From positions 1 through 64,000 of IMG/VR virus record IMGVR_UViG_3300025102_000018: a DNA stretch of 64,000 bases; one strand, given 5' to 3'. The position numbers were made by a program, and so were the translations under genes. Under the pieces are notes generated by a model. The model saw nothing but the letters and a program-made list of their open reading frames with translations. It was not told the origin of the DNA and ran no database searches. Shown here one piece after another: positions 23,719 through 55,798 of the stretch. How positions within the stretch are numbered: the first letter of the stretch is position 1; each line of letters begins with the position of its first letter. The DNA is from a virus.

Positions 23719-25512
23719 TTAAATAATTCCCATCGCTTTTTTAACATAGTAAGCAGCTAAAGGTTTGTGTCCACCAATACTCCAATAATCAATATCTTCG
23801 GTAGCTACATCATATTGTTTATAATCGTATATGGTAGCTGTAGTACCATCAGGAAACTCTATAACCCATTCCATTTGTACTTTTCCATCTGGACTAGGTT
23901 CATCATAGACGGGTGGCCCAAATACTTTTTCTATATCGTCTCTATGGTAACCATCTAATTCACCCTGTCTACTAGTACCACCACTATTTCTGTAATTTCC
24001 TGTTTTAAATGGGAAAGGTGAAGGTATAATTAATTCAGTAAAAGTATGGCTTGGGTCATTAGCCATATTTTGTATAAATAAAGCATATACGAAGTCTTTT
24101 TCATCATCCTCAAACCCATACAGTCTAAATACTGGTTCTATAATTTCTTCCATCACTTCTCTATTCCATTGGTATTTTGTTTTATCATGATGAAGTAACA
24201 TCGCAGTACTAGATTGAGTAGGTTCAAAGAACTCCAGTTCATAACCTTCATCTACTAACCAAGGAGCTCTTCCTACCATATCTTTTAACATTGTTCTTAT
24301 TCTTCTTTCTTCCGCTGTATTTTTAGATAATTCTTCCGCTTGTTGTTCTGTAATTTTAATTTTTAATGTAGATTCTTTCATATTTGATTTTAATTGTGTG
24401 GGAGAAGTAATCGGTGGATTATTAAAACCTATTTTACCATAATAGATACCTCTCATATGTTTTTGTCCTTCATTTTTAAAAACAATAAATTTAGGGTTAC
24501 TTGAATTAGGACTACTTACAAATAAATAATTAACATCTATAGGATATCCTTCTTTAGGTAAAGCCGCAGACTCTACTTCATAAGGAAATCTTTCTGTTTT
24601 ATATACTCCTTTTTTTAAAGGTTTAACTTGATAATAATCCATCGAACCATCCTCTCTATAAATTCTCATATCTTGACCACAAGTTCTATCTAGAGTATCA
24701 CCAGGACACCCAGATTCAATTTTAACATTACCTAAACCATTATCTTTATACCAAGACCTTAACCATTCTTCACCCATCCGTTCTCTTCTTTCTCCTATAC
24801 ATTGGGTTTCCCTATTCTCATTTGCAAGAACTTTAACTATATCACCAGGACCAAATAACCTTATTTTATTATCGATAATCCATGGTAAAAAATCATCTCT
24901 ATTCCACTCTTCACTTACCTCGTCTTTATAAATCTTTAAAAGTTCTCTTAAAACACGTGTATTACCCTCAAAATAGTTTAATATAGACCAGTCATCAGTT
25001 CCACATGCAAGTTCAAAATTAATAACTCCTGGGTTTCTACTACTTCCCTCTGGTACATTGCCCATTCCCCAGTTGTCTGTGTTACTCCACACATCTTTAA
25101 TAGCTTGCTTAACTGTTTGACGAAAAGGGCTCCTCGACTCTACTTGAGTATAGAGAAAATTATTATTGTACAATAATTTATTATTTATTATAACATTAGA
25201 TGACGGTCTATCATCCGAAGGTTCACTAATTTTTTCTTTTTTAGAAATACTTAAATTAGGCCAAAAGTTAAAAGATAATAAACTAGTATTAACAGGAATA
25301 TCGTCTTCACCATCAGCTCTTAAAATAATTTCTTTATAATTTTTTATTTCTTCTGGGGTTACTCCAGAAACATCATTAAAGAAATACCTCCAATTACCCG
25401 AAGCTCTATTTTTATAATTGACAACTAAGGGTTCAGTTGATATCATTTCTTCATTATCCGGAGTTTGTTCCTTTAAAGTTTTTAACTGATGTTTTGTAAC
25501 AATAATCTTCAT
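23719..25512 (-). CDS. Multidomain protein with head-protein-like leader and a possible PD-(D/E)XK-like domain
   Basis: Leader MKIIVTKHQLKTLKEQ; internal LKIKITEQQAEEL; D..G.D...YQVKP; ATATTTAT on minus strand at 25517-25524. Confidence 0.5.
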   Translation of the reverse strand: MKIIVTKHQLKTLKEQTPDNEEMISTEPLVVNYKNRASGNWRYFFNDVSGVTPEEIKNYKEIILRADGEDDIPVNTSLLSFNFWPNLSISKKEKISEPSDDRPSSNVIINNKLLYNNNFLYTQVESRSPFRQTVKQAIKDVWSNTDNWGMGNVPEGSSRNPGVINFELACGTDDWSILNYFEGNTRVLRELLKIYKDEVSEEWNRDDFLPWIIDNKIRLFGPGDIVKVLANENRETQCIGERRERMGEEWLRSWYKDNGLGNVKIESGCPGDTLDRTCGQDMRIYREDGSMDYYQVKPLKKGVYKTERFPYEVESAALPKEGYPIDVNYLFVSSPNSSNPKFIVFKNEGQKHMRGIYYGKIGFNNPPITSPTQLKSNMKESTLKIKITEQQAEELSKNTAEERRIRTMLKDMVGRAPWLVDEGYELEFFEPTQSSTAMLLHHDKTKYQWNREVMEEIIEPVFRLYGFEDDEKDFVYALFIQNMANDPSHTFTELIIPSPFPFKTGNYRNSGGTSRQGELDGYHRDDIEKVFGPPVYDEPSPDGKVQMEWVIEFPDGTTATIYDYKQYDVATEDIDYWSIGGHKPLAAYYVKKAMGII

Positions 25513-25558
25513 ACTAATAAATATTTGAAAGATGAGGCAATTTTATTATAATTATAAC

Positions 25559-26338
25559 ATGATAAAAACAATTGTACATTATTCAGACCTACATCTTAAA
25601 CTTTACAAGCACCACCAAAGAGATAAATCAATATTAGAAAGTGCTTTAGAAGAGTGGAAAAAAATTAAACCAGATAGGATTGTGTTTACTGGTGATTTGG
25701 TACATTCTAAAAATCAGATGACACCAGAGTTGGTTAGATTAGTAAGTTGGTGGATGACAGAAACTGCAAAAATATGTCCCACTATTTACTTAATCGGTAA
25801 TCATGATTTTTTAGAAAACAACCAAGACCGCTTAGATGCTATAACACCTATAGTGGAAAATTTAAATAATCCTAACATAACTTATTATAAACATAAGGGT
25901 GTTTATGAAGATAAAAATATACTTTGGTGTGTATATTCACTAGTGGAAGAAAATGAAAGACCAGATATCCCAGATACAGATAAAACCAAAATAGGTTTAT
26001 TTCACGGTCCTATTATAGGGTTAAAAACAGACATAGGTTTCCAATTCGAAGAAGGGTATGACGCGGAAAGATTTGAAGGGTGTGATGTAGTATTAGCAGG
26101 TGATATACATAAAAGACAAATATTTGATATACCTAATAATAATAAAGCGTATATGGTTGGTTCTACGATATGTCAAAATTATGGAGAAAATGTAAAAAAT
26201 CATGGTTATGGTATTTTTAATCTGGAAGATTTTTCCTATATTTTTAAAGACTTAGAAAATCCACAACCTTTTTTAAGTTTTAAAATAAACGATATTTTAG
26301 ATATTGAAGAACAAAAAGAAATTTTAACAAATGGTTAA
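25559..26338 (+). CDS. SbcD/Mre11 (gp47-like) metallophosphoesterase nuclease
   Basis: SDLH, TGDLVH, IGNHD, LFHG, AGDIHKRQ; ATG at 25559 preferred over 25532. Confidence 0.88.
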   Translation: MIKTIVHYSDLHLKLYKHHQRDKSILESALEEWKKIKPDRIVFTGDLVHSKNQMTPELVRLVSWWMTETAKICPTIYLIGNHDFLENNQDRLDAITPIVENLNNPNITYYKHKGVYEDKNILWCVYSLVEENERPDIPDTDKTKIGLFHGPIIGLKTDIGFQFEEGYDAERFEGCDVVLAGDIHKRQIFDIPNNNKAYMVGSTICQNYGENVKNHGYGIFNLEDFSYIFKDLENPQPFLSFKINDILDIEEQKEILTNG

Positions 26339-26777
26339 TTTACCTAAAAATTTAAATAAAAATATTGAAGACTACTGTAAACTCAATGAAATAGAAGATA
26401 CGGTAGATTTTATAATTAAATGTACTAAGGATGGACTTACTTTGGACAAATATGGTGTAGCACCATTTTTACCTAAATCCCAGATACAAGAAGTTCCCGT
26501 AGAAAAAGAAATAGTAAAAGAAGTTATAAAAGAAATACCAGTAGAAAAAGAGGTTATAGTAGAAAAAATTGTAACCAAAGAAGTTAAAGATACTCAGTTA
26601 ATTGAAGAACTAGAAAAACTCAAAAAAGAATTACAAAATAAGGATAATTTAATAAAAGAACAACAAGAAAGAATGGAACAAATGGAAGATGTGCTTGAAC
26701 ACTTCAAAAAAGTAACAGTCAATAGGAGAGCAAAATACCTTAAGACCTCAAACATAAACGATACATATATAGAATAA
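26331..26777 (+). CDS. Coiled-coil protein with (V/I)PVEKE(I/V) repeats
   Basis: EVPVEKEIVKEVIKEIPVEKEVIVEKIVTKEV. Confidence 0.55.
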   Translation: MVNLPKNLNKNIEDYCKLNEIEDTVDFIIKCTKDGLTLDKYGVAPFLPKSQIQEVPVEKEIVKEVIKEIPVEKEVIVEKIVTKEVKDTQLIEELEKLKKELQNKDNLIKEQQERMEQMEDVLEHFKKVTVNRRAKYLKTSNINDTYIE

Positions 26778-26778
26778 C

Positions 26779-27084
26779 ATGGAAATATTAATTTGGATTT
26801 TAGCAGCTTACGGAATGTCTCAAATACTTGTATTTGGAGGAATATTCGATACACCAAGAGATTGGATAAAAAAACACTCTACATTTTTTGGAGACCTAAT
26901 CTCATGTATGATGTGTACGTCTACCTGGGTCGGATTCTTTTTCTCCTTAGCTTTTTATTCCCCAACACTACCTATGGTAATTATACCTTATACTAACATA
27001 TTTTTTGACGGTATGTTAGCTAGTGGTTCAGTGTGGGCTCTTAATGCGATGGTAGAATGGTTTGAGGAAAATAGACCTAAATAA
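26779..27084 (+). CDS. Small membrane protein (DUF1360-like)
   Basis: Hydrophobic helices and LISCMMCTSTWVGF (C-x-x-C-x-x-x-W). Confidence 0.55.
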   Translation: MEILIWILAAYGMSQILVFGGIFDTPRDWIKKHSTFFGDLISCMMCTSTWVGFFFSLAFYSPTLPMVIIPYTNIFFDGMLASGSVWALNAMVEWFEENRPK

Positions 27085-27097
27085 CAATGAAAACGGT

Positions 27098-29428
27098 ATG
27101 GAACTAAAAAGAGTAAAAAAGTTAAAAAACCCTTTTGTTAGGGTAGTGTGGGAAGACATACCAGAAAATTTTACCAAAGAAAGAATAAGAAGAGTTAAAT
27201 CTTATTTTAGTAAAAAATATAATTCAAAAAACGTCACTGTCATAAGTAAAGCACAATCAGTTAAAGGTAAAAAACTAGAATTATCTTTAGGTGAAGATGT
27301 GATGGACAAAAACTATCAAAAAAATCTTTTAAAAGAATTTCTTAAACAAGAAAACATTAACGTAGAATGGGGTGACATATCTCGACTTGATGATAAGGTA
27401 AACGCCAGTCTAGACAAAACAGGTATACTACAAAAAAGATATAGAAAGTTAGTAGTAAATAAAATTAAATTTTCTAATTTTCTTTCTTTTGGTGATAATA
27501 ACGTATTAGACTTTAAACGATTAGACGGTATAACAGTAATAGACTCAAACCCACCAAATTTTGGAGGGAAAACAGTTTTAGCTGTAGACTTACTCCTATT
27601 TTTATTTTTTAACAACACCACTAAAACTAATAAAGCTGAAGAAATATTTAATAAGTTTCGTAATAAAAATGAGGTAATTGTAGAAGGTGATGTAGAAATT
27701 GATGGTGAAGATTATATTATTTTAAGAAAAGTAGTAAGAAAAAAAACAGCTAAAGGAGAGTGGTCTGTTAGAACACATTTAGAGTTCTTTAAAAAAATGA
27801 AAGATGGGAGTTTACAAAATTTTACTGGAGAACAAAGAAGGGAAACAGAAAAATTTATTAAAGAAGCTATAGGAAATGTAGATGACTTTTTACTGACGAT
27901 TTTAACCACCGGGTCCAACCTAGACTCACTTATTGACGCAAAACCCACAGAAAGAGGTAATATTTTTTATAGATTTATTGGGTTAGAATTATTGAGAGAA
28001 AAAGAAAAATTTTGTAAAGAAATGTACTCTACCTGGTCTAAAAAACTTATCTCTAATGTATACGATATAAACACCTTAAAAACTGAAATAGAAGAATCAG
28101 TGGAACTGATAAAAGAAAAAGAAGAATCAATCAAAGTTTCAGATAAAGAAATTAAAGAATATGAAAAAGATATAAAAGATTTTAGAAATGAAAAAGATAA
28201 TTTACTAGAGTCTAAATATAATGATATAGATGAAGGTATTAGTAAAATAGATATAAAATCATTAAAAAGTAATTTAGAAGATTATACAAAAAAATTAGAA
28301 GAAAAAACTAAGGAGATTGAGGAAATAGAGGTCGTCGAACCTGAAACATACTTTAATCCCACAGAATACCAACTAAAAGAAAATGAAAAAAATGTGATAA
28401 GTAAAGAAGTCACTATTCTAGAGACAGAAGTTAAAAATTTTACAAAAACTATTAAACAATTAGAAACCTCACAATTTTGTCCAACATGTGGAAAAAGCTT
28501 AGATGATGTAGACCATACGGAGGATATTAAAAATAAAAAGAAAGAGTTGGTAGAAACAAAAGATGGGTTATCTAAAAAAATTGTTAAGGAAACTAATATT
28601 GTAAATGAGTTAGAAAAACTTAATAAATTAAAGTTACAATTAGAAATTTATGATAGAAATAAACTAATCAAAGAAAAGAAAACTCTAGAATCAGATTCTA
28701 TAAAAGTAATGTTAGAAAAAAATAAAAATTCTATAGACTCTTATGAATTAAATAAAAAGAAAATTGAATACAACCAAGAAGTAGAGTCAAAGAGTTTAAA
28801 ATTACAAAGTAGTATAGATAACTTTACAATTCTTAAAGATAAAACAATTGATACTAAAAATAATCATCAGATAATATTGGAACACAATAAAAGAGTCGTA
28901 ACCGAAAATGAAGATAAAATAAGTAAAATCCAACAAGAAGAAAAAATTGAAAAAATATTTAAAACTTATTTAATGGCTTTTGGTAAAAATGGAATACCTA
29001 AAGTTATACTTAGAAGTTTTGTGCCCGCTTTAAATTTGGAAGTTAATAATTTATTATCGGTAGAAAATCATTTTTACATTGATATAAGAATTAATGAAAA
29101 ACATGAAGTAGAATTTTGGATGGTAGACAAAGATAGTGAATTAGCTAGACCACTTTCTTCTGCTTCAGGATACGAAAAAACTATTTCATCATTAGCTTTA
29201 AGAGCGGTATTAGGGAAGATATCTTCTCTACCCAAACCAAACGTTACTGTTTTTGATGAGGTATTTGGTAAAGTAAGTAATGATAATTTAGAAATGGTTG
29301 GGGAGTTTTTTATGAAGTTAAGAGAATACTTTGATAACATTTTACTCATAACACATAATCCTTTAGTTAGAGAGTGGGGTGAAAATGTTATCACAGTTAA
29401 AAAAGTTGACAACATATCTATAATTTAA
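27098..29428 (+). CDS. SbcC/Rad50 (gp46-like) SMC ATPase
   Basis: IKFSNFLSFG, NFGGKT Walker A, CPTC zinc hook, SASGYEK signature, VFDEVFG Walker B, LITH; ATG at 27098. Confidence 0.9.
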   Translation: MELKRVKKLKNPFVRVVWEDIPENFTKERIRRVKSYFSKKYNSKNVTVISKAQSVKGKKLELSLGEDVMDKNYQKNLLKEFLKQENINVEWGDISRLDDKVNASLDKTGILQKRYRKLVVNKIKFSNFLSFGDNNVLDFKRLDGITVIDSNPPNFGGKTVLAVDLLLFLFFNNTTKTNKAEEIFNKFRNKNEVIVEGDVEIDGEDYIILRKVVRKKTAKGEWSVRTHLEFFKKMKDGSLQNFTGEQRRETEKFIKEAIGNVDDFLLTILTTGSNLDSLIDAKPTERGNIFYRFIGLELLREKEKFCKEMYSTWSKKLISNVYDINTLKTEIEESVELIKEKEESIKVSDKEIKEYEKDIKDFRNEKDNLLESKYNDIDEGISKIDIKSLKSNLEDYTKKLEEKTKEIEEIEVVEPETYFNPTEYQLKENEKNVISKEVTILETEVKNFTKTIKQLETSQFCPTCGKSLDDVDHTEDIKNKKKELVETKDGLSKKIVKETNIVNELEKLNKLKLQLEIYDRNKLIKEKKTLESDSIKVMLEKNKNSIDSYELNKKKIEYNQEVESKSLKLQSSIDNFTILKDKTIDTKNNHQIILEHNKRVVTENEDKISKIQQEEKIEKIFKTYLMAFGKNGIPKVILRSFVPALNLEVNNLLSVENHFYIDIRINEKHEVEFWMVDKDSELARPLSSASGYEKTISSLALRAVLGKISSLPKPNVTVFDEVFGKVSNDNLEMVGEFFMKLREYFDNILLITHNPLVREWGENVITVKKVDNISII

Positions 29429-29448
29429 TATTTATTAAAAAAGAAACT

Positions 29449-30063
29449 ATGAGAACAAGACAGTACCTTTTATTTATGTTTGGGAATTGGAAAATTCTAG
29501 AAAAAGAACGTGAGTTATATACACATATTAGTGATATGTTACATACTATTATTAATACTCCAGAAATTAGTTTTATTACCGGAGAACATATGATGATAGC
29601 TTGCTTATCATCCACGTCAACTTTTGAAGAAATCTCTAGTTTATTAGAAGAATTCTTATCACCAGAAATAAACACTTATTTTTTAATGCCTAAACCTAGA
29701 AAGTTATCATATAGAATGAACCCAATACTGGAGGAACACTTATTTAATAAATTAATTTCACCTAAAAAAAATAAAATTAAATTAGATGATAAGGAACTAA
29801 AAGAATTACAAAAATTATTTAAAGAAGATAAAGATAGAGAAAACATTCTTAGAGACATGGCAAAAATGATGATGCCAATAATAATGCATGGAAAATTTCC
29901 TATAAATTTAGATAAGGATAAACCTTCTTATGAAGAATGGTTGAAAACACAAAAAATTAACTTAGATTTAGATAGTATACTAGATAAAATATCCTCACAA
30001 GGTATTGATAGTTTAAATGAAATAGAAAAAGAATTTTTAGATAACCACAAAAAAGATAATTAA
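29449..30063 (+). CDS. Hypothetical protein, C-terminal DUF6576-like motif
   Basis: LDSILDKISSQGIDSLNEIEKEFL; preceded by ATATTTAT at 29428. Confidence 0.5.
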   Translation: MRTRQYLLFMFGNWKILEKERELYTHISDMLHTIINTPEISFITGEHMMIACLSSTSTFEEISSLLEEFLSPEINTYFLMPKPRKLSYRMNPILEEHLFNKLISPKKNKIKLDDKELKELQKLFKEDKDRENILRDMAKMMMPIIMHGKFPINLDKDKPSYEEWLKTQKINLDLDSILDKISSQGIDSLNEIEKEFLDNHKKDN

Positions 30064-39034: not shown

Positions 39035-40411
39035 ATGTCAGATATATTAAGTAAAAACCCTCAATTAGAAGATGTTTTAAGAAAAGCTGTTGAGAGAGTG
39101 GGCACTCAAAACCATGCAAAAACACAAGATAACCAAGGTGCAGTCATTAGTAACGAAGGTAAAATAATGAACTATGCAGACTCCAAAGGTCAACATCCAC
39201 ACAGAATTGCCCAAAAAAGTGAAAAAGCTGGATTTAAAAGTGGGTGGCATAAAGTTCTTGGTGAACAAGAAAACAAAAATGATAAAACAGCTATAGATTT
39301 AGAAGTTGAAAGACAAAAAGAGATAAAAAAAATAAAAACAGAAGTTAACGGTCACCCTAAGTCAGCGGTTAAAAGAATGATAGATGCCGTTAACAAGAAA
39401 TATAAAAAACTAATAGACGCTGCAAAACAAAAAGAAAATTCTGACAATAAAGAAGAAGAAGTAGAGGAAGCTACAGGAAGTGGGAGTTCTGGTGCGTTTG
39501 TTGCACCAATGCAATGGAATGAAAGTGAAGTTGAATCCATAATGAAAAAAGTGGTTAAAGAAGAGGTAGCTAAAAACGTAATAAAGAACAAAGTAGAAAA
39601 AATAGTAGATGAAGAACTTGGAGAAACCGACTTATCGTACTCCAAACGACATATAGAAGGGGAAAAAGACCCATATAATTTTAGTTCTCAAGGACCTTTC
39701 CCTAATGTAGGTGAAGGAAGTGGATATAACTACGAATCAGGAGGGCCCTTACAATTTAACGAAAATGTTAAAGAAAAACTAAAAAATAGATTAGTAAACA
39801 AACTTAAAGAACAATATACAGAAAAACCCCTAAAGACACAGACAGGGTTTAAGGATGTTTCTGGATTTAAAAGTAATACAGCAGTTAAAACTTTTGATAC
39901 TGCTCATAAAGAGGCTGGGAAAGAAGGTGCCGACTTTGTAAAATCGGTAAATAAAAAAATGAAAGACTATTTAGATATTGAAAATAATAGTCATCCGGAG
40001 TTCCCACACCAAAATAATTCTAAAACAGATTATAAATCACCAATGTATAGAAACACACCTGAAGAAGAAGACTTTATTGATGACTTTAGGGGTATGGGAC
40101 TACAAGATGCTAATGGTGTTGAAAGTCTAGATAGGATTAGTGACTACTTAGGTGGAGCTATGGAAACTGGTAACGCTCAAGTAGATAAAGATGGTAAAGC
40201 CTTGGGTAATGTGGTACCAAATAAGTTAGGAGACCGATTACAAAAAACTATGAAACGTAAAAAAGCTGCAATTGCAAAACAAAAATCCAGTATGACTAAT
40301 CTTAGAGGGTATACCCCGGATGTACAAAAAGTCACCCAGGTTAAAGAAGATGTGAAAAAAGATGTGGACAATATGAAAAAACTATGGTCCTATACTGAAA
40401 AAACACAATGA
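39035..40411 (+). CDS. Probable internal head/scaffold-like protein
   Basis: Highly charged; EEATGSGSSGAFVAPM; repeated (L/V)KE motifs; ATATTTAT at 39011. Confidence 0.45.
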   Translation: MSDILSKNPQLEDVLRKAVERVGTQNHAKTQDNQGAVISNEGKIMNYADSKGQHPHRIAQKSEKAGFKSGWHKVLGEQENKNDKTAIDLEVERQKEIKKIKTEVNGHPKSAVKRMIDAVNKKYKKLIDAAKQKENSDNKEEEVEEATGSGSSGAFVAPMQWNESEVESIMKKVVKEEVAKNVIKNKVEKIVDEELGETDLSYSKRHIEGEKDPYNFSSQGPFPNVGEGSGYNYESGGPLQFNENVKEKLKNRLVNKLKEQYTEKPLKTQTGFKDVSGFKSNTAVKTFDTAHKEAGKEGADFVKSVNKKMKDYLDIENNSHPEFPHQNNSKTDYKSPMYRNTPEEEDFIDDFRGMGLQDANGVESLDRISDYLGGAMETGNAQVDKDGKALGNVVPNKLGDRLQKTMKRKKAAIAKQKSSMTNLRGYTPDVQKVTQVKEDVKKDVDNMKKLWSYTEKTQ

Positions 40412-46510: not shown

Positions 46511-46518
46511 TATCTTTG
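46511..46518 (+). promoter_or_regulatory. Bacteroidota-type -7 promoter box TATCTTTG
   Basis: Matches TAnnTTTG with an upstream TTTG near 46487; 4 nt before ATG 46523. Confidence 0.6.
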
Positions 46519-46522
46519 TAGT

Positions 46523-46744: not shown

Positions 46745-46765
46745 TCTTAAAAAAAATAGTAAAAA

Positions 46766-47050
46766 ATGGGTGCAAGCACAACAATGGAAAAAAGAGGTCA
46801 TCATATCTGTAAAATGGTGAACTATGAAGTAAGACAAAAAATTACAAAAGAGACATCAAAAAGAATTGGCGGTAAACTAGTTAAAACCCCAGGAAACAGT
46901 GAGGTGATGATTTATAAAAGAAAAAGTAAGATTGAGGGTGGGATGACTGATATAAAATTAGCAGCTCAAAAAGTTTATAATATCCTTAAAAAAGAAGGAA
47001 AAAATCAACTAGTAGATAAAAAATTAATTAGAAGATATAGTTTGGTTTAA
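46766..47050 (+). CDS. Basic hypothetical protein
   Basis: 94 aa, followed by a terminator. Confidence 0.5.
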   Translation: MGASTTMEKRGHHICKMVNYEVRQKITKETSKRIGGKLVKTPGNSEVMIYKRKSKIEGGMTDIKLAAQKVYNILKKEGKNQLVDKKLIRRYSLV

Positions 47051-47054
47051 CTTT

Positions 47055-47080
47055 AACCCCGATTAGTCGGGGTTTTATTT
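47055..47080 (+). terminator. Intrinsic terminator
   Basis: AACCCCGA-TTAG-TCGGGGTT followed by TTATTT. Confidence 0.8.
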
Positions 47081-47109
47081 TATCTTTAGAATATTTATAA
47101 ACAAAAGAA

Positions 47110-48369
47110 ATGGCACTACAGTTTACTGACATATTAACTAACATCATTTTAGAACAATCTAGAGAAGAGGTTCTACTAAAGAAATTTACCCAACCTAAAA
47201 AGAAGGGTAAAAAACCTTTAATGTCTAAAGACGAGTTTTATATGTTAGTTAAAGCAGACCCTACTACTAGGGTTGATAGTGATGGTGAAGACGATGAGTC
47301 GGAAGTAAAAAAGGTAGGGGCATATGCACAATGGTTAATTAAACAATATATGTCACTACAACAAGAGGCAGACAAACACTATGCCTACGGTAGTCCAGAT
47401 TGGGATGGTAAGTTAGCACAACTTAAAGATACATTCCAAGAAGACTTGTATAAAGTAACCGAAGACCTACAAAAATTTCATAGATTTAAGTCTAGAGTAT
47501 CAAAGGATAAAAGAGACATTAATAAAATATCTAGTCCAGATGAATTATATGATTTAACAAAAGGTTTTTCATTAGAACAAGCGACTACTACTAAAGCCGA
47601 AAGAGTTTTAAAGGATGCGGAATTAGTTTATGATGGGACTAATTGGGAGGTTTTAATTCCTAAATCTAAAGAAGCTTCATGTCATTATGGTTCAGGTACT
47701 AGATGGTGTACAGCTGGTAGTACTTCTAATTACTATGACCATTATTCTAAACAAGGACCTTTGTATATTATGGTTAGTAAGAAAGACCCTAGTGACAAAT
47801 ACCAGTTCCATTTTGAATCTAATCAGTATATGGATAAAGAGGATAGACAAGTAAATTTACCTACATTCTTAAATGAGAGACCAGAACTTAAAGAATTCTT
47901 TAAAGAAATGTTTAAAAGATTTTTAAGTAAAGACCAAAAACAAGGTAAAAGAGTACAAGTAAGATATCCTAGTGATTCTGTGTCAAAATATATTGGGATT
48001 TACGGTTTTGATGAATTTATGGAAAGTTTACCCCAAGACCTAGAAAGGTTTGATTTTGAACATGGGGGTGGATATGGAAACCAGGAAAAATTACCATCAA
48101 GACCTTTACCAGAAAGATTCACTAAATTTCCTAATTTAAAAATATTACACATAGAAGGATTACTAAATGAGATTCCTGAAAGTATTGGTAATCTTAAGAA
48201 TCTTAAATTTTTATCTTTAGCTAAAAATCCTGAATTAAAATCACTTCCAGACTCATTAGCAGACCTGGAACAGTTAGAAGTTATTAATTTAAAAGATTCA
48301 CCTAACGTTAAGGTTGGTCCTAGATTACAAGAAAAAGATGATTCCGAAGATTTGATTATTATTAGATAA
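47110..48369 (+). CDS. Phage protein with GTRWCTA domain and C-terminal leucine-rich repeats
   Basis: ASCHYGSGTRWCTA...GPLYI...KYQFHFES; LRRs IPESIGNLKNLKFLSL, LPDSLADLEQLEVINL; ATATTTAT at 47091. Confidence 0.7.
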   Translation: MALQFTDILTNIILEQSREEVLLKKFTQPKKKGKKPLMSKDEFYMLVKADPTTRVDSDGEDDESEVKKVGAYAQWLIKQYMSLQQEADKHYAYGSPDWDGKLAQLKDTFQEDLYKVTEDLQKFHRFKSRVSKDKRDINKISSPDELYDLTKGFSLEQATTTKAERVLKDAELVYDGTNWEVLIPKSKEASCHYGSGTRWCTAGSTSNYYDHYSKQGPLYIMVSKKDPSDKYQFHFESNQYMDKEDRQVNLPTFLNERPELKEFFKEMFKRFLSKDQKQGKRVQVRYPSDSVSKYIGIYGFDEFMESLPQDLERFDFEHGGGYGNQEKLPSRPLPERFTKFPNLKILHIEGLLNEIPESIGNLKNLKFLSLAKNPELKSLPDSLADLEQLEVINLKDSPNVKVGPRLQEKDDSEDLIIIR

Positions 48370-48388
48370 TTTTTTGTATATTTGTTAT

Positions 48389-48697
48389 ATGAATGTAGAT
48401 GTATTAATATATGTGAATAATCTTAAAGAGTTTTTTAAAAACGATGAACAAGCATTTAAAGATATGTTTGGGACGCTAGATATAGATAAAGAATTATATT
48501 TTAAAAGACTCGAAGAGGTTGCAACCCAAAATTTTGAAGAAAAGGGGGAACCCACACTATCAACTACTCAGATGTTTGGTGTAGTACAAGAATTAATAAC
48601 ATCCCTTCCCCAAAACTCAGGATTTGAGTTACCCCCCGAGATAAAGGGTATTTTTGTACATGTGAAAGACGGATACCCACCAATTTGCCTAAACTAA
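48389..48697 (+). CDS. Hypothetical protein
   Basis: ATG at 48389, after TATATTTG at 48377-48384. Confidence 0.5.
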   Translation: MNVDVLIYVNNLKEFFKNDEQAFKDMFGTLDIDKELYFKRLEEVATQNFEEKGEPTLSTTQMFGVVQELITSLPQNSGFELPPEIKGIFVHVKDGYPPICLN

Positions 48698-48755
48698 TTA
48701 CGATTTAGATTGACAATCTAAAAACACCTTATTATTTTTAAAATAAAAATTTATT

Positions 48756-49094
48756 ATGGCAAAAGATAATTCAGCAACAAAATTAGCAGCAAACCAACTA
48801 CTGTTGGAAAAATACGAACCAATTTTGGTTATTAAAATAATGAGAATTCCTCCTGTAGAGGAATTACAAGCTTTTACAAAAAAAATTCAGACGGATTTTG
48901 GGTATAATACGTTAGTATTACCAGGAGAGTTAGATACCTCTGTAGAAATTTTAAGTGTTTGTGATGTTGAAGTCACAGATTTAGAAAAACTACAAAAAAT
49001 GGTTTATGATAATATTAAATTATTAGAAGAGGATGGGGCAGAAGAAGTGACGTTTAAAACAGCAAAAGAAATAAGGGATGAAAAAAAGGACTAA
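48756..49094 (+). CDS. Hypothetical protein
   Basis: 112 aa. Confidence 0.5.
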   Translation: MAKDNSATKLAANQLLLEKYEPILVIKIMRIPPVEELQAFTKKIQTDFGYNTLVLPGELDTSVEILSVCDVEVTDLEKLQKMVYDNIKLLEEDGAEEVTFKTAKEIRDEKKD

Positions 49095-49827
49095 AGGTGT
49101 TATTTTAGCTGGGGGTACGGGTAGTAGATTATATCCTTTAACAAAGGTTACTAATAAACACCTATTACCAGTCTACGATAAACCTATGATATATTACCCC
49201 TTGGAAACCCTTAAAAAAATGGGTTGTAAAGATATATTAATTGTGTCTGGAAGAGAACATTGTGGTGATATATTAAATTTATTAGGTAGTGGTAGAGAAA
49301 TGGGTCTTAAATTATCCTATGAAATACAAGACGAGGCGGGTGGAATTGCACATGCTTTAAGTCTCGCTGAAAGATTCGTAGGGGCATCTAATGTAGTGGT
49401 GTGTTTAGGTGATAATATCTTTAATGAAAACTTAACAATAGATGGTTTCGAAGGGGGTGCAAAGATATTTTTAAAATCTGTACATGACCCAGAAAGATTT
49501 GGTGTCGCTGAACTTAAAAAAGGGGAAGAGTGTAAAGTGTTATCTATAGAAGAAAAACCAAAAAAACCTAAATCTAATTTTGCGGTAACTGGTCTTTATA
49601 TGTATGATAACAGAGTTTTTAGTTATATTAAAAATCTTGCCCCTTCTGAACGAGGAGAATTAGAAATTACTGATGTTAATAATTTTTATGTTAGAGATGG
49701 GTTAATGACTTGTCAGGTGTTACAATCTTGGTGGTCTGATGCAGGAACCTTTGAAAGTTTATTAAAAGCTTCATCATTAGTAGCTAATAAAAAATTATGT
49801 GAGTGTTCCCCACACGAATTAGAATAA
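49078..49827 (+). CDS. rmlA: Glucose-1-phosphate thymidylyltransferase (RmlA/SpsI-like)
   Basis: GVILAGGTGSRLYPLT, KHLLPVYDKPMIYYP, LGDNIF, EEKP, AVTGLYMYD, RGELEITDVN, WSDAGT. Confidence 0.9.
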   Translation: MKKRTKGVILAGGTGSRLYPLTKVTNKHLLPVYDKPMIYYPLETLKKMGCKDILIVSGREHCGDILNLLGSGREMGLKLSYEIQDEAGGIAHALSLAERFVGASNVVVCLGDNIFNENLTIDGFEGGAKIFLKSVHDPERFGVAELKKGEECKVLSIEEKPKKPKSNFAVTGLYMYDNRVFSYIKNLAPSERGELEITDVNNFYVRDGLMTCQVLQSWWSDAGTFESLLKASSLVANKKLCECSPHELE

Positions 49828-49848
49828 AAATTATTAATTTGTTAAAAA

Positions 49849-50277
49849 ATGAGAAGAAAAATTTTAAGAAAGTATAAAGATTTACATAGTGATAACCCAC
49901 AAAATATAGGACCAGCACTTACACCCAAAACAAAAAGGAATAAAAATGATTGGGATTCTGATTACTGGTTAAGAGAACAATATAATAGAAATAGAGGGTA
50001 CAAAGACCAAATTCCAACCCAAGAGGATATTATAGAATATAACAGAAAAAAAAATAGAGAAAACGAAATGGTAGAACACCCTAATCATTATGGGGGTGAA
50101 GAAAATCCATATGAAGCTATTAAGGTAATTGAAGAGTGGAATCTTGGATTTAATTTAGGTAATACTATAAAATACATTTCAAGAGCAGGTAAAAAAAATA
50201 ATACCATTGAAGATTTAGAAAAAGCAGAATGGTATATAAAAAGAGAAATAAATAATTTAAAAAAGGTAAAACAATGA
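49849..50277 (+). CDS. DUF3310-domain protein
   Basis: VEHPNHYGG...GFNLGNTIKYISRAGKK...EDLEKAEWY. Confidence 0.8.
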   Translation: MRRKILRKYKDLHSDNPQNIGPALTPKTKRNKNDWDSDYWLREQYNRNRGYKDQIPTQEDIIEYNRKKNRENEMVEHPNHYGGEENPYEAIKVIEEWNLGFNLGNTIKYISRAGKKNNTIEDLEKAEWYIKREINNLKKVKQ

Positions 50278-50804
50278 GAACATTATTATTAGCAGTATTA
50301 GTCGCGCTTGGACTAAACACAATACAAGCACAACAACCGCAACAACCTTATTTTTGCTGCGATTCAATAACATATTGGATAGACCAAAGTCAAGGATTTA
50401 ATATAGGACTTGATACATCAAATATAGTACATAATCCTGACTCTATGACAGTATATTGGGGAGTATGTACTGGATTTGCAACAGCTGGCATGTGTTATGC
50501 AGGACAAGGTATGTATGAGTATTTTCCACAAATTACAACTTCAGATACAATTAAAGTAGCGTATGATGTATACATTTACGAGAACGGTTCAGTAGAAGTA
50601 TGTAGTGTAGAAGATTGGTTAGTATTTGACCAAAACTCTTTTTCATGGGTATTACTCAATATGTTACCAACAAACATAGAAGAACTTGCAATTGAAAAAA
50701 TTAATGAAAATAAAATATATGATTTAATGGGTAAAGAATTAAGAGAAGTACCAGTAGGGGTTATGTATATTAGAAATAATAAACTTTATATAAAAACAAA
50801 TTAA
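50274..50804 (+). CDS. Secreted protein with T9SS-like C-terminal domain
   Basis: Signal peptide IQA-Q; CTD KIYDLMGKEL...VMYIRNNKLYIK. Confidence 0.65.
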   Translation: MRTLLLAVLVALGLNTIQAQQPQQPYFCCDSITYWIDQSQGFNIGLDTSNIVHNPDSMTVYWGVCTGFATAGMCYAGQGMYEYFPQITTSDTIKVAYDVYIYENGSVEVCSVEDWLVFDQNSFSWVLLNMLPTNIEELAIEKINENKIYDLMGKELREVPVGVMYIRNNKLYIKTN

Positions 50805-50805
50805 C

Positions 50806-51234
50806 ATGAAAGGTAAAATTAATACAGATAAAGGGACTATGGTGGTAGAGTTTTATGAAAAAGACGCACCTAATACAGTAGATAATTTTGTTAAATTAGC
50901 AAAAGATGGTTTTTATAATGGATTAAAATTCCATAGAGTAATTCCAGGATTTGTCGCTCAAGGAGGATGTCCTAATGGTAGGGGTGATGGTGGACCTGGG
51001 TATAAAATAGATTGTGAGTTAAATGGTGGTAATCAGTATCACGACAAAGGTGTTTTATCCATGGCACACGCTGGTAGAAATACTGGAGGGTCACAATTTT
51101 TTATTTGTCACAATAGACCTGGAACACAACATCTAGACAACCAACATACATGTTTTGGAAAAATTGTAGATGGGATAAATATTATAGAACAAATCGTACA
51201 AGGAGATACATTTTCTGTGGAAATCGAAGATTAA
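50806..51234 (+). CDS. Cyclophilin-type peptidyl-prolyl isomerase
   Basis: APNTVDNF, FHRVIPGFVAQGG, LSMAHAGRNTGGSQFFI, HTCFG. Confidence 0.93.
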   Translation: MKGKINTDKGTMVVEFYEKDAPNTVDNFVKLAKDGFYNGLKFHRVIPGFVAQGGCPNGRGDGGPGYKIDCELNGGNQYHDKGVLSMAHAGRNTGGSQFFICHNRPGTQHLDNQHTCFGKIVDGINIIEQIVQGDTFSVEIED

Positions 51235-52145
51235 TGAAAACAAGATTATCTGATTACGTTGGTAATACACCTCTTATACCTATTAAAATAGGTGAATTAA
51301 CTGTTTGGGGAAAATGTGAATTTATGAATCCAGGTGGTTCAGTAAAGGATAGAATGGCTACCTTTATTTTAAACGATGCAGAAAAAAGAGGTATACTTAA
51401 AAAAGGTGATACTATTTGTGAAGCGACATCAGGTAATTCAGGAATCGCGTTTGCGATGTTAGCGGCAGAAAGAGGTTATAAAATAGAAATTTTTATGCCC
51501 AGAAACATGTCAGAAGAACGTAAACAAATGCTTCAATTCTATGGGGCAAATTTAAGAGAAGTGGATGAAGGGGACTTTGATGGAGCTATCCTAAGAAGAG
51601 ATGTCCTATGTCATACCCATGGATGGTTTAACTGTAACCAATTTAATAATCCTTTGAACATCCAAGCACATTATGAAAATACAGCTCCTGAAATTTATGA
51701 AGAATGGTCATTACCTAAAACTAGAGGTAGTTACCGACGAATAGATAGTCCTGCGGTTTTTATAGCTGGTACAGGGACGGGAGGAACTTTAATGGGTTGT
51801 GGAAAACGATTAAAAGAATATTGGAATAAACTAAAAGTAGTAGCTATTGAACCTGCAGAATCCGCTGTTATGTCAGGGGGTGATGAAGGTCTACATGGCA
51901 TCCAAGGAATAGGAGACGGAAGCAAATTTTTAGTAGATTTGGATTTTGTAGATGAAATTAAAACAGTTAAGACAGACTGTGCTAAAGAAATGGCAAAACA
52001 TTTAGCTCTTAAATACGGTCTATTTGTTGGTATTAGTGCAGGGGCAAACGTCAAAGCAGCATTCCAATGGTTAAGAGATAACAATGAAAAAGAGGCAATA
52101 ACAATTCTCTGTGATAGAGGAGAAAGATATTTTAGTTGTTTATGA
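51234..52145 (+). CDS. cysK: Cysteine synthase (PLP-dependent, CysK/CysM family)
   Basis: VGNTPL, NPGGSVKDR, EATSGNSG, GTGTGGT, HGIQGIG, GISAGAN, DRGERY; ATG at 51234. Confidence 0.88.
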   Translation: MKTRLSDYVGNTPLIPIKIGELTVWGKCEFMNPGGSVKDRMATFILNDAEKRGILKKGDTICEATSGNSGIAFAMLAAERGYKIEIFMPRNMSEERKQMLQFYGANLREVDEGDFDGAILRRDVLCHTHGWFNCNQFNNPLNIQAHYENTAPEIYEEWSLPKTRGSYRRIDSPAVFIAGTGTGGTLMGCGKRLKEYWNKLKVVAIEPAESAVMSGGDEGLHGIQGIGDGSKFLVDLDFVDEIKTVKTDCAKEMAKHLALKYGLFVGISAGANVKAAFQWLRDNNEKEAITILCDRGERYFSCL

Positions 52146-52840
52146 ATTATTTATTTGACGTAGACGGAACCCTAACCCCGAGTAGGTTACCAATCGATAA
52201 AGATTTTGAAAAATTCTTCCTTGAATGGATGGATGGAAAAAACGTCTATTTGGTTACAGGCTCCGATAAAGATAAGACAATTGAACAGGTTGGAGAAAAA
52301 ATTTGGAATAAATGTACACGTGTATACCAATCATGTGGTAATGCAGTTTATGAGAATGGAGAGTTGATAAGACAATTAGATTTTCCTTTATCCGTTGATT
52401 TGGAAAAATTATTAAATGAATTTTTAATGTGGTCTCAGTGGATGGAAAGATTTACGACCCATATTGAAAAACGTATAGGACTTATAAATTTTAGTGTTGT
52501 AGGTAGAGATTGCCCACAAGAAGTGAGAGATAGATACCATAAATGGGATTTAAAAGTAAAAGAAAGAGAAACATTCTGTCAAATCATTGAAGAAAAATTT
52601 CCTCATATAGAAGCCAGTGTGGGGGGTCAGATATCGATAGATATTCATTCTAAAGGAAAGAATAAAGCTCAAGTACTAGATGAAATTGATGGTGAAATAG
52701 TTTTTTTTGGGGATAAATGTGAACCAGGAGGTAACGACTACCCCATTGTTGAAAGATTATTTCCTTTAATTGATGAACATACTATTCATAATGTTAAGGA
52801 TTGGGGAGAGACTTATAAAATATTAAACCAATACGGTTAA
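52142..52840 (+). CDS. Phosphomannomutase, HAD-IIB (eukaryotic PMM-like)
   Basis: LFDVDGTLT, VTGSD, INFSVVGR, GGQISIDI, FFGDKCEPGGNDY. Confidence 0.85.
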   Translation: MNYLFDVDGTLTPSRLPIDKDFEKFFLEWMDGKNVYLVTGSDKDKTIEQVGEKIWNKCTRVYQSCGNAVYENGELIRQLDFPLSVDLEKLLNEFLMWSQWMERFTTHIEKRIGLINFSVVGRDCPQEVRDRYHKWDLKVKERETFCQIIEEKFPHIEASVGGQISIDIHSKGKNKAQVLDEIDGEIVFFGDKCEPGGNDYPIVERLFPLIDEHTIHNVKDWGETYKILNQYG

Positions 52841-52844
52841 TGTT

Positions 52845-52994
52845 ATGACACTTAAAGAATTTAAAAAGCATCACGAAACATACACTAAAAAGTTTATGTT
52901 ATATGGTAGAACTTTCGATTTAGATTTTAAAATGTATATGATTATACAAGGATTATCTGAAGAAGAATTTGATAAATTAATACTAGACATCTAA
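52845..52994 (+). CDS. Small hypothetical protein (absent from the ORF track)
   Basis: 49 aa MTLKEFKKHHETY...; stop overlaps the next ATG. Confidence 0.4.
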   Translation: MTLKEFKKHHETYTKKFMLYGRTFDLDFKMYMIIQGLSEEEFDKLILDI

Positions 52995-53338
52995 TGAATT
53001 ACATAGAAGAAAGACCGTGGGGTAAATTTGAAATACTAGTCGATGGTGATTATTGTAAAGTAAAAAGAATAACCGTAAAGCCGGGTGGTCGGTTAAGTTA
53101 CCAATACCACCATCAAAGAAGTGAAGTGTGGACAATTGTCCAAGGTGAAGCTTATATGTTGTTAGATGATGAGTTACAATTGTTCAATTATGGGGAAACA
53201 ATACTAATACCCCAAGGAACTAAACATAGAGTAGAGAATAAAGGACAAGAAGATTTAATCTTCATAGAAGTCCAACACGGGTCATACTTTGGTGAAGACG
53301 ATATAGTTAGAATTGAAGATGACTATAATAGAAATTAA
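52994..53338 (+). CDS. Mannose-6-phosphate isomerase type II C-terminal cupin
   Basis: ERPWG, VKRITVKPGGRLSYQYHHQRSEVW, IEVQHGSYFGEDDIVRIEDDY. Confidence 0.88.
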   Translation: MNYIEERPWGKFEILVDGDYCKVKRITVKPGGRLSYQYHHQRSEVWTIVQGEAYMLLDDELQLFNYGETILIPQGTKHRVENKGQEDLIFIEVQHGSYFGEDDIVRIEDDYNRN

Positions 53339-53340
53339 TT

Positions 53341-53673
53341 ATGAAGATAAAGTTAGATAAAAAAAATAGTAATTTAATTAAAGAAAATACCACCTATACA
53401 GTTATAGATAATACAGATTTAGAAAACTTAGTAGTGTCTAAAACTATTTTACACCCCAAAAAAGAAACTACCGGTCACGCACACGAAGGACAAGAAGAAG
53501 TTTATCACTTTATAAGTGGGAAGGGTACCATGCAAATAGGTGTTATGGAACACGAAGTTAAAAAAGGTGATATATTTTCTATTCCTGATGGTGCTTTTCA
53601 TAAAGTTTGGAATCATAGTAATAAAAAAGATTTAATATTTATATGTGTTTTTGACGGTAGAAGAAGTCATTAA
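53341..53673 (+). CDS. Cupin-domain protein
   Basis: GHAHEGQEEVYHFISGKG...IPDGAFHKVWN. Confidence 0.8.
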   Translation: MKIKLDKKNSNLIKENTTYTVIDNTDLENLVVSKTILHPKKETTGHAHEGQEEVYHFISGKGTMQIGVMEHEVKKGDIFSIPDGAFHKVWNHSNKKDLIFICVFDGRRSH

Positions 53674-53695
53674 GTATTTATAAATAAAATATCTT

Positions 53696-54283
53696 ATGCG
53701 TATAATCATTAAAGAGTCCCAATTTAAAAGATTATTAGAACAAAAATCTTTTAAATCCAAATTTGTAGATTGGAGAACTAGAAGTGCAGGACAACCTATT
53801 TTTGATTATGTTAGACAATGGGAAGATTTTGTACCCTTTACGTATGATGACTATTATTTCCCCCCAAGAGTGTTTACAGGTTCTACAAGTAACGCAAACG
53901 GAACCCTAACTATAGGTTATGGTACTACAGACCCTAAGTACGCTTATCCAGGTAATACCATCACTAAAAAAGTAGCAGAACAAATTTCCCAACCAGATAT
54001 TCAAGAAGCTGCAGATTGTATAAAAAGATGGCAAGGCAGAGCTAAACCAGGTGACAAATTTAGTTTTAATAATAGAAAAATAACATCAGGTATGTATTAT
54101 GTGATGAGTGATATAGTTTACAACATGGGATGCCAAGCTTTTATAAAAACTAAAACTATAGAAAAAATAGAACAAGGGGAGTATAAAAAAGCTAAAGACT
54201 TTATACAAAATAAATTAGAATGGGGTCACCAAAAAAGAAAAGACCAAGCAGCAATAACTTTTTGTAAAGATGGGGTATGTTAA
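53696..54283 (+). CDS. GH24-like lysozyme with N-terminal leader
   Basis: WEDFVPFTYDD, LTIGYGTT, DIVYNMG; leader MRIIIKESQFKRLLEQ. Confidence 0.7.
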   Translation: MRIIIKESQFKRLLEQKSFKSKFVDWRTRSAGQPIFDYVRQWEDFVPFTYDDYYFPPRVFTGSTSNANGTLTIGYGTTDPKYAYPGNTITKKVAEQISQPDIQEAADCIKRWQGRAKPGDKFSFNNRKITSGMYYVMSDIVYNMGCQAFIKTKTIEKIEQGEYKKAKDFIQNKLEWGHQKRKDQAAITFCKDGVC

Positions 54284-54295
54284 TATTTATATAAT

Positions 54296-55798
54296 ATGAA
54301 ATCAGTATTAATCACAAAAAAACAATTTAATAACATTTCTGAGTCTTTAATTACAGAAAGTGGTATTCAGGACATTAAAAAACTAGCGGAAAGATATCCT
54401 AAAGCTCAGATATATTTTCATTTAGATTTAGACGGGGTGGTATCAGCGATAGCGATGAGAGAATACCTTAATAAGTACGGGATAGAAACTATAGGGTTTA
54501 AAACCATCCAATACGGAGATAAAGAATTTGCATTAGTTAAACCAGATGCTAATAAAGATGTTATGCCGGTTTTAGTAGATTTCGCTCATGGTAAACCTGA
54601 ATTTAAAATACACACGGACCATCACGATACCCAAACAGGTGTAGAAGACGCTGCTACACAATTTAAACCAGCTCGTTCTAATGTTGAAACAATTTCAGGG
54701 ATAATTTCACCTACAGATATATTCCCTACTGGTGATATAGACCTTTTTAGAACAGTAGATTCTGCAGATTTTTACCGAAAGGGTATTAAACCAGAAGAAG
54801 TGATTAACTTTGTATTTAAGTTAGATAAAGAAAAAGATATTGAAAAAAATAGACAAGCTGCTGGATTTGCACTTAATAAATTGATTTTAGCTTATAAAAA
54901 TAAGCCTGGTTTCCTAGAAAAATTAGCAATGTTCTCCAATCCGAGCATTGTTAGTATGTTTATGAAAGGGAAAGAATTAGCCAATCAGATGGGTTTTCCA
55001 GGGGTAGAAACTCTCCAAACTAATTCAGAAGATTATAGAGAAAGACTAAAAAACTTTGATAAAGTACAACAAAAAGGTAAGATACTTGTACAATATGGTA
55101 TACCTTCAGCTTTTAAACCTGGTTCTTACGATAGATATTCTTCATTAGAAATGTATCCTGATGTGGAGTATTTTCTAATGATTTGGCCTATGGGATTAAT
55201 TCAAACCAGTTGTAATCCATTTAAATCAAAATTTGATGAAAATGTTAATTTAGGTGACATGGCAAGTGAGGTACTAGATGAGTTTAAATCTGAATTAGAA
55301 TCTATAGATATACCCTTATCACAGATTAAAAGAATTAGTGAAAGAAGTGTAACATCTACTCTACAAAAATTGATTAAACAAAGTGATGAAGATTTTGGAG
55401 ACGTAAAATCAGAAAAAGATTTTTTTGGGTTTAGATTTAAGGATTTAATCGCATTATATAAAGATAATATTAAAGGGATAAATCCTGATAAAAAATCTAG
55501 TTTTAATGATTTAATTACTGATATTGCCAATCGACCATATTCTGATTTATCATATAAACAAAAAAAAGTATTAGACTATGTTTCTGTAAACGCTTATGAT
55601 ATTATTAAAGCAAACAGTGGTGGTCACCCTTGTATAACAAACATTTCAGGAATTAATTATCTTGGAAAACTAGGTGGTGATTTTCTTAAAAGAATAGCCA
55701 AAAGAATTTTAGAAAAGTTAAGTGAGAAAGTTAATAAAGAGGAATCTACATCACTTAAAGAATCTATAAAAAATAAATTAAAAGAATTCAGAAGATAA
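54296..55798 (+). CDS. DHH-family phosphoesterase-like protein with N-terminal leader
   Basis: FHLDLDGVVSA, VLVDF, HTDHH, C-terminal SGGH; leader MKSVLITKKQFNNISESLITE. Confidence 0.7.
   Translation: MKSVLITKKQFNNISESLITESGIQDIKKLAERYPKAQIYFHLDLDGVVSAIAMREYLNKYGIETIGFKTIQYGDKEFALVKPDANKDVMPVLVDFAHGKPEFKIHTDHHDTQTGVEDAATQFKPARSNVETISGIISPTDIFPTGDIDLFRTVDSADFYRKGIKPEEVINFVFKLDKEKDIEKNRQAAGFALNKLILAYKNKPGFLEKLAMFSNPSIVSMFMKGKELANQMGFPGVETLQTNSEDYRERLKNFDKVQQKGKILVQYGIPSAFKPGSYDRYSSLEMYPDVEYFLMIWPMGLIQTSCNPFKSKFDENVNLGDMASEVLDEFKSELESIDIPLSQIKRISERSVTSTLQKLIKQSDEDFGDVKSEKDFFGFRFKDLIALYKDNIKGINPDKKSSFNDLITDIANRPYSDLSYKQKKVLDYVSVNAYDIIKANSGGHPCITNISGINYLGKLGGDFLKRIAKRILEKLSEKVNKEESTSLKESIKNKLKEFRR

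Follow-up and report, generated by a model that had tools for sequence, protein, structure and literature searches.

A short N-terminal leader ending in (L/I/V)-x-E on unrelated late proteins of an uncultivated T4-like jumbo phage: a candidate capsid-loading propeptide

Results

Four genes with unrelated products share an N-terminal leader

The stretch of DNA analysed here (the window) comprises 64,000 nucleotides (nt), bases 1-64000 of the 73,884-bp IMG/VR virus record IMGVR_UViG_3300025102_000018 (CheckV completeness 23%; GC content of the window ~31%), and our subject is a short N-terminal leader carried by four of its genes, which encode a 597-residue multi-module protein, a leucine-rich repeat (LRR) protein, a GH24 lysozyme and a DHH-like phosphoesterase candidate (Table 1). 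An original prediction, made from the DNA alone, had claimed that these four scattered genes begin with related peptides and that each has its own (A/G)TATTTAT box; all four N-termini are indeed present in the window, and a box was found 12-22 nt before each ATG. Once the first 22 residues are removed, the four protein bodies show no mutual similarity (BLASTP, E > 0.6). Three further leader-bearing late genes lie in the record beyond the window, at 65937, 69627 and 71227, with the leaders MEYLIEQ, MKLINVIKNLVYEQ and MNLIIEN.

The 597-residue protein, an identical copy of which is carried by a 180-kb contig, begins with the leader and a variable N-domain, continues with a PD-(D/E)xK-like region and the internal leader-like segment, and closes with a conserved C-terminal module. 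The lysozyme scores 46.2 bits against Pfam PF00959 (cut-off 22.3, E 7e-12) and is thus a GH24 member. The 500-residue protein encoded downstream of it reaches 22.9 bits against PF01368, below the cut-off of 28.1 (E 1e-4), and has no relative in the PDB by sequence; we therefore call it DHH-like only. Directly after its leader the LRR protein has a domain of ~170 amino acids (aa) that recurs, again just after the leader, in the 588-aa protein encoded at 71227 of the record (L054:9227-10993; BLASTP E 1e-15; phrog_17056, phrog_28193).

Two additional copies of the motif had been proposed, one internal and one terminal. The internal copy in the 597-aa protein (MKESTLKIKITEQQAEEL) is genuine, being conserved throughout the family and preceded by an invariant [LIVM]-x-E-[S/N], and it may possibly represent an internal processing site or a fusion scar. 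By contrast, the C-terminal SLKE... segment of the DHH-like protein (SLKESIKNKLKE, 55751-55786) is not conserved in three orthologues, and we rejected it as a chance resemblance for that reason.

Table 1. Positions in the window of the leader-bearing genes, their leaders and upstream boxes, and a sigma factor gene.
Feature	Position	Strand	Remark
597-aa multi-module protein	23719-25512	minus	51 homologues found
Type-A leader MKIIVTKHQLKTLKEQ of the 597-aa protein	25465-25512	minus	ends L-K-E; near-invariant in family
ATATTTAT box of the 597-aa gene	25517-25524	minus	12 nt before ATG
Internal leader-like copy MKESTLKIKITEQQAEEL	24328-24381	minus	residues 378-395 of the 597-aa protein, at domain junction
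LRR-containing protein, 419 aa	47110-48369	plus	LRR repeats
Type-B leader MALQFTDILTNIILEQ of the LRR protein	47110-47157	plus	ends I-L-E
ATATTTAT box of the LRR gene	47091-47098	plus	19 nt upstream
GH24 lysozyme, 195 aa	53696-54283	plus	Pfam Phage_lysozyme; catalytic domain from ~residue 30
Type-A leader MRIIIKESQFKRLLEQ of the lysozyme	53696-53743	plus	ends L-L-E
GTATTTAT box of the lysozyme gene	53674-53681	plus	22 nt upstream
DHH-like phosphoesterase candidate, 500 aa	54296-55798	plus	Pfam match below cut-off
Leader MKSVLITKKQFNNISESLITE of the DHH-like protein	54296-54358	plus	ends I-T-E right before conserved SGIQDI
ATATTTAT box of the DHH-like gene	54283-54290	plus	13 nt upstream
Phage sigma-70-family factor, regions 1.2, 2 and 4	31315-32112	plus	Sigma70_r2 5e-17, r4 1e-13

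The window belongs to a T4-like jumbo phage

For comparison we used a set of five related genomes, G000 (the record itself) to G004, holding 685 genes that were called crudely as the longest ATG open reading frames (ORFs) of at least 60 aa with overlaps removed greedily, and counts drawn from this set are approximate. Gene order is shared with G001, which matches 55 of the 84 G000 proteins at ~65% identity, with G003 (57/84, ~49%) and with G004 (60/84, ~51%). The last of these, 297,623 bp long and 93% complete, carries a T4-type head module (Portal_T4, 7e-78; Gp23, 1.3e-63; a T4-type large terminase), and its capsid protein points to Flavobacterium phage vB_FspM_immuto_3-5A as the closest cultured relative (36% identity). 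Because of this synteny with a genome that has a T4-type head module and a Flavobacterium-phage-like capsid protein, we assign the window, on sequence grounds, to an uncultivated T4-like jumbo phage; its host probably belongs to the Flavobacteriia/Bacteroidota, and Bacteroidota-style signal peptides are present in the window. The type-A tag was not found in vB_FspM_immuto_3-5A, and a search of 50,697 GenBank phages gave no match to the lysozyme or the 597-aa protein (tblastn) or to a 10-kb stretch of the window (megablast). PHROGs and Pfam offered no family for most of the structural and leader proteins.

The leader is concentrated at protein N-termini

In the 685 genes a regular expression for the type-A core matched 26 times, as against 1.1 times in shuffled proteins, and 21 of the 26 matches begin no later than residue 45, against an expectation of 13.8%. 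The pattern phi-phi-E-[QEK] likewise favours N-termini, with 4.8% of the N-terminal 22-mers containing it as against 1.8% of internal 22-mers (p = 8e-7). As [LIV]-x-E alone is common, and a loose predicate (hydrophobic residues plus LxE) was not enriched at N-termini (18.5% versus 16.9% internally), the signal resides in the specific tags and not in LxE by itself. The leader tag is real, that is, more than chance.

A profile built from 20 leaders, of the kind that the original prediction had proposed to build, returned 38 matches at E <= 1e-3 from 1.84 billion representative proteins, all of them metagenomic and most of the form MKKVIRLTESDLVRIVKRVIKEQ; 30 of the 38 begin at residue 1-4, which supports an N-terminal tag. 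Pfam annotation of 20 database proteins matching the profile was uninformative. Some metagenomic proteins (P0077, P0094, P0095, P0100 and P0109) carry two or three leaders in tandem, for example MKVVINESQYNKLFNKTKTKLVIDESQYNRLFNKTKTKLVITESQFNSL. We also considered whether the leaders are Sec, Tat or lipoprotein signal peptides and rejected this on reading their sequences. Such a signal has a basic N-region and then some 10-20 hydrophobic residues without a break; in the leaders K, E, Q, S, D or R, all charged or polar, recur every 2-4 positions, and the true signal peptides that the window does contain, such as those at 35471, 36770 and 37726, look unlike them.

Leaders are exchanged between conserved bodies

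In the family of the 597-aa protein the leader MKIILNEKQIKSLSLLEEQ is almost invariant (MKII..xKQ.K.L..L.EQ), and the next ~300 aa diverge and are replaced by unrelated sequence. Lysozyme homologues, too, keep a leader although the adjoining sequence diverges. Their family displays 22 distinct N-terminal extensions, all ending in [LIV]-x-E at positions 8-27 and including MxIIITESQFKxLLEQ, MKLINQLTLLIEQ, MIKLKDILLEA and longer forms that end ...INEQ, ...IGEQ or ...LSEQ. Orthologues of the DHH-like protein have leaders of 7, 14 and 21 residues and of differing types, all of which abut the conserved SGIQDI (LITE|SGIQ in the window, MKKIIKE|SGIQ in G003 and MELVNTLSQILLKE|SGIR, that is LLKE|SGIR, in G004), and the leaders of the LRR-protein orthologues end ...EILEQ (G003) and ...LVLEQ (G004).

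The possibility that the leader is part of the catalytic fold, which would have undermined the original prediction, is at odds with what we found for the lysozyme. Remoter GH24 homologues have no leader and start straight at the catalytic helix, and in an AlphaFold2 (AF2) model the predicted local distance difference test (pLDDT) score is 45-51 for residues 1-20 and at least 82 from residue 21, with a helix predicted at 7-17. The swapped leaders, the leaderless homologues and the low N-terminal pLDDT argue that the leader is an exchangeable appendage outside the lysozyme fold.

A longer sister tag marks many further proteins

Alongside the leaders of the window we recognized a longer sister tag, MKKVIRLTESDLxRIVKRVIxEQ; the MKKVIRLTESDL... 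form is among those found here. A degenerate DNA pattern for its K[VI]I[KR]LTESDL segment occurs in at least 119 IMG/VR stretches, from which the figures given for this tag are drawn as 90 matches in 80 listed loci. An ATG lies within 5 codons upstream of 87 of these 90 matches, and 56 of those 87 have the box. BLAST sorts the 89 bodies into 63 clusters. At positions that the pattern left unconstrained, R14, I15, V16, V19, I20 and E22 are conserved, E22 in 83 of the 90, and conservation ends after E-Q. When the leader of the window itself was turned into a strict DNA pattern, IMG/VR yielded two chance matches only, the 24-aa sister tag had no match in the 50,697 GenBank phages (tblastn), and word searches on the motif brought up no paper describing this tag.

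It is conceivable that the N-terminal strand-helix is an element of protein structure or oligomerisation in its own right, a coiled-coil former for instance, that arose repeatedly and has no sorting role. The predicted helicity of the segment, the heptad-like spacing of the hydrophobic residues in the sister tag and the existence of internal and tandem copies would suit such an element. However, orthologues differ in the type and length of their leader, AF2 does not confidently pack the leader onto the lysozyme domain, and the sister tag stands on dozens of unrelated body clusters while being tied to one promoter class, so that we hold this explanation to be decidedly improbable.

The codons of the leaders bear on another alternative. 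The original prediction had envisaged a portable cassette of promoter plus leader DNA, and in this respect it did not hold: the two best window leaders share 29 of 48 nt and use the same codon at only 5 of 8 identical residues, the spacing from box to ATG varies, and codons at conserved residues of the sister tag are free, with five used for L7 and five for R18. Because synonymous codons vary so freely, selection acts on the leader peptide. Selection on mRNA or DNA, through A/U-rich start codons that aid translation in Bacteroidota or through a mobile promoter-plus-leader cassette, could draw on the AAA/AUU-rich codons with which the leaders begin and on the bS21-like gene of the phage, since late phage mRNAs may be favoured by bS21 according to a published proposal (PMC9723584). 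Yet the codon variation and the 29/48-nt leader identity largely refute a mobile cassette or mRNA-level signal, conservation spans 22 codons and ends at a defined residue, and we accord this explanation hardly any probability.

Leader genes are linked to a late-promoter-like box

In G000 the box occurs 11-26 nt upstream of 15 of the 84 genes, namely all 7 leader genes and 8 of the 77 others; one of the box-bearing genes is a large member of the structural block at the left end of the window. The G004 genes with the box upstream are those for the protease and the terminase, one that lies between the portal and protease genes, and several very large structural genes. Over G000-G004 the box accompanies 14 of 21 genes with a type-A leader and 125 of 664 other genes (odds ratio 8.6, p = 3.6e-6), which bears out the expected co-occurrence of leader and box. 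Because it also precedes head and tail genes, the box is probably a late promoter. The sigma-70-family factor encoded in the window is conserved in G003 and G004 (~65% identical), and our guess is that it reads the ATATTTAT box.

Two ORFs of the window, at 38348-40411 (plus strand), show weak similarity to Gp23: a stretch that runs from the end of the first into the start of the second resembles the N-terminal part of that protein at E 3.5e-6, below the cut-off. The second (39035) has its own box, the first (38348) follows the box-bearing gene 38109, and the pair has no Pfam or PHROG family.

Near-complete tag-bearing genomes encode a T4 gp21-type protease

A prohead protease that could remove the leaders had been looked for at the suggestion of the original prediction, and the outcome was divided: relatives encode one, and none was found in the window's own record. 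G004 has a gp21-like Peptidase_S77 (240204-240929; E 1.5e-26 to 1.4e-25), and G006 also has a Peptidase_S77. Among 27 large records chosen solely for the sister tag, 16 have Peptidase_S77 above the cut-off, including 5/5 of those at least 90% complete, and the share falls with completeness as expected for fragments; all six near-complete tag-bearing genomes, one of them G004, encode a T4 gp21-type Peptidase_S77. An L-L-E or L-I-E motif also lies close to the N-terminus of three G004 proteins: the scaffold-like protein (238620-240101), the capsid protein and the protease.

A second protease system is present as well. ClpP is encoded by 8/8 tag-bearing genomes tested, and G000 has its homologue at 67791-68459 (L054:5791-6459, minus strand; E 1.5e-58); G004 also has a ClpA/B-type AAA+ unfoldase (Pfam). 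This G004 locus (252120-256729) has, beside the unfoldase gene, DnaK-like and Hsp20-like genes that were recognized by N-terminal sequence alone, and the ClpP, ClpA/B-type, DnaK-like and Hsp20-like genes look like a phage proteostasis module. These genes raise the possibility that the tag is a degron or an adaptor site for a phage ClpP / ClpA-B-type protease, which would time or limit the life of the late enzymes. Co-occurrence alone cannot separate a role for Clp from one for S77, but a degron gives no reason for the conserved terminal (I/L)-x-E, and why a phage would destroy its own promoter-boosted late enzymes is hard to rationalise; we consider the Clp explanation quite improbable.

Neighbouring genes and other modules

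The bS21-like gene, recognized by its sequence (67581-67772 of the record; L054:5581-5772, minus strand), adjoins the ClpP gene and lies on the strand opposite to the gene upstream; bS21-encoding Bacteroidetes jumbo phages are available for comparison (PMC9723584). A leaderless endolysin-like protein, a second cell-wall enzyme, is encoded at 68977-69591 (L054:6977-7591, minus strand; phrog_33083, E 1.5e-16), which hints that the tagged lysozyme need not be the lysis enzyme.

Three large proteins of the structural block at the left end of the window (13727, 16345 and 17430, plus strand) have related N-termini of their own (MSYILKDSSQGQIAVKLTDAGRKKL, MGFISTATTQTIYLKFTDYGKYLL and MGFVQSASTQYIQTVLTNYGRGLL), which form a second N-terminal module, perhaps a docking domain of fibre-like proteins. 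The C-terminal ~100 aa of the 597-aa protein (23719-24020, minus strand; FGPP.WD...ATIYDYKQY...WSIGG) are also encoded separately, as stand-alone proteins of ~100-110 aa, on many large and unrelated phage contigs. At the position in G004 equivalent to that of the 597-aa gene there is another leader gene (94536-95915, plus strand; MKRQVILKESQYNTIKRRLIE..., 459 aa), on the strand opposite to its neighbours, and the presence of a different leader gene at the site occupied by 23719-25512 in the window suggests that cargo is replaced at a fixed genome site.

Discussion

Phage T4 loads three small internal proteins and Alt by means of a 10-residue tag, and these proteins are now known as injected anti-restriction factors. 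The tags of IPI, IPII, IPIII and Alt, termed capsid-targeting sequences (CTS), are reportedly removed by the prohead protease gp21 (Mullaney & Black 1996; Repoila et al. 1994; reviewed in PMC3012670, PMC5694885, PMC12373910). In published work the T4 internal head proteins reach the scaffolding core via the CTS, which gp21 later removes (PMC5694885, PMC3012670). Cleavage by gp21 and its relatives is after Glu, T4 Alt being cut at ITE-6 and LTE-619 (PMC5694885), and the internal proteins of T-even phages have nothing but the leader in common (PMC12373910). Several marks of a CTS recur in the leaders described here: the tag is common to unrelated proteins, a predicted (L/I)-x-E site stands at the junction of tag and body, and the tag appears dispensable for the fold. 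With moderate confidence we read the leaders as N-terminal capsid-loading propeptides of a T4-like jumbo phage, similar in kind to the T4 CTS.

We infer the following course of docking, cleavage, packaging and ejection. The leader genes would be transcribed late from the ATATTTAT-type promoter, and the tag of 7-23 residues, a short beta-like stretch and then an amphipathic helix, would dock its cargo on the scaffolding core of the prohead. A gp21-type prohead protease (Peptidase_S77) would then cut after the Glu of the terminal (L/I/V)-x-E (predicted at ...RLLE15 in the lysozyme and at ...TLKE15, possibly also at E380, in the 597-aa protein), so that the mature GH24 lysozyme, DHH-like phosphoesterase, LRR protein and nuclease-like multi-module protein would stay in the head and, once packaged, leave it with the DNA at infection.

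The parallel with T4 extends beyond the tag, which like the CTS is short, N-terminal and ends in (L/I)-x-E on otherwise unrelated late proteins. The clade has an S77 protease of the gp21 family together with a T4-like portal, Gp23 and a T4-type terminase; the cargo genes are scattered or hypervariable, as in T4, each with its own late promoter (here a predicted one); and very short leaders such as MNLIIE and MLLTE recall the ITE-6 site of Alt. There are also differences. The tags have no sequence similarity to MKTYQEFIAE beyond their amphipathic character and terminal x-E, they are longer (16-23 aa) and come in several interchangeable types, of which the sister form is far more conserved, and they occur in tandem and internal copies unlike those of T4. 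Instead of small inhibitors, the cargoes are more numerous and larger, with enzymes of 200-600 aa and, for the sister tag, 63 clusters among the 89 listed bodies. The promoter box is ATATTTAT and not TATAAATA, and the tags are known here from sequence alone.

The phiKZ-like giant phages provide a second comparison, in which many head proteins are loaded, a gp21-related protease trims propeptides after Glu and paralogues have identical N-termini. The propeptides of phiKZ gp175 and SPN3US gp245 are cleaved at S/A/G-x-E or A-x-E (PMC5694885, PMC7411985, PMC10052503). In contrast to the canonical S77 match and T4-type head genes of the clade studied here, the proteases of these giants belong to family S80 and favour a small P3 residue, and their propeptides are long and lack a single shared portable tag.

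Several observations weigh against the capsid-loading interpretation. Cargoes that act on peptidoglycan must reach the periplasm, and ejection into the cytoplasm with the DNA would not take them there. The motif is not strictly N-terminal, since the 597-aa protein has it internally as well and other proteins have it in tandem, and the loose LxE predicate showed no N-terminal enrichment. There is no S77 gene in the 73.9-kb record of the window phage (23% complete), for which the assignment of this protease rests on relatives of ~50% identity; a metagenome scan gave short contigs only, and the protease gene of the window phage was not seen among them. Peptidase_S77 was also detected in 4 of 16 other large viral contigs, a control that was not random and itself holds T4-like phages. 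Finally, with ClpP in all eight genomes tested, a second protease system co-occurs with the tag equally well.

The first of these points might indicate a location in the tail or entry apparatus and not in the head interior, as several tagged cargoes are peptidoglycan enzymes or binders (GH24; M23+PG_binding+SLT; PG_binding_1; OmpA-like). The tag could then dock its protein at another site in the virion (tail, baseplate, neck or portal), or act in assembly without ever being cut, and peptidoglycan hydrolases would come within reach of the cell wall during entry; the link to a late box would suit any virion component. Nevertheless, the most conserved residue that the sister-tag pattern left unconstrained is the terminal Glu of (I/L)-x-E, and conservation stops right after it, which is what one would expect of a protease site and not of a permanent plug. 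Moreover, the DHH, nuclease-like and HAD-like cargoes look cytoplasmic in action, and the clade has the whole T4 head-maturation set. We regard docking elsewhere in the virion as unlikely, and continue to prefer loading into the capsid.

Whether the principle is general is a larger claim, which we advance only tentatively: the tags may be a general address for loading the capsid, used by uncultivated T4-like jumbo phages (~300-410 kb) of an abundant clade, and each genome would encode dozens of late proteins that are packaged, trimmed and injected. If so, the address would serve cargoes such as peptidoglycan hydrolases, nuclease-like proteins and LRR proteins, and an injected DHH-like phosphoesterase might destroy nucleotide immune signals. 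The set of proteins injected by such phages would become readable from sequence alone, and tandem tags might tune the number of copies loaded. This would yield a list of candidate counter-defence and cell-entry proteins from uncultivated phages, as well as a natural tag with which foreign proteins could be loaded into large capsids. Should the tags work as in T4, abundant aquatic jumbo phages would be applying the same principle far more extensively, and to cargoes that are real enzymes.

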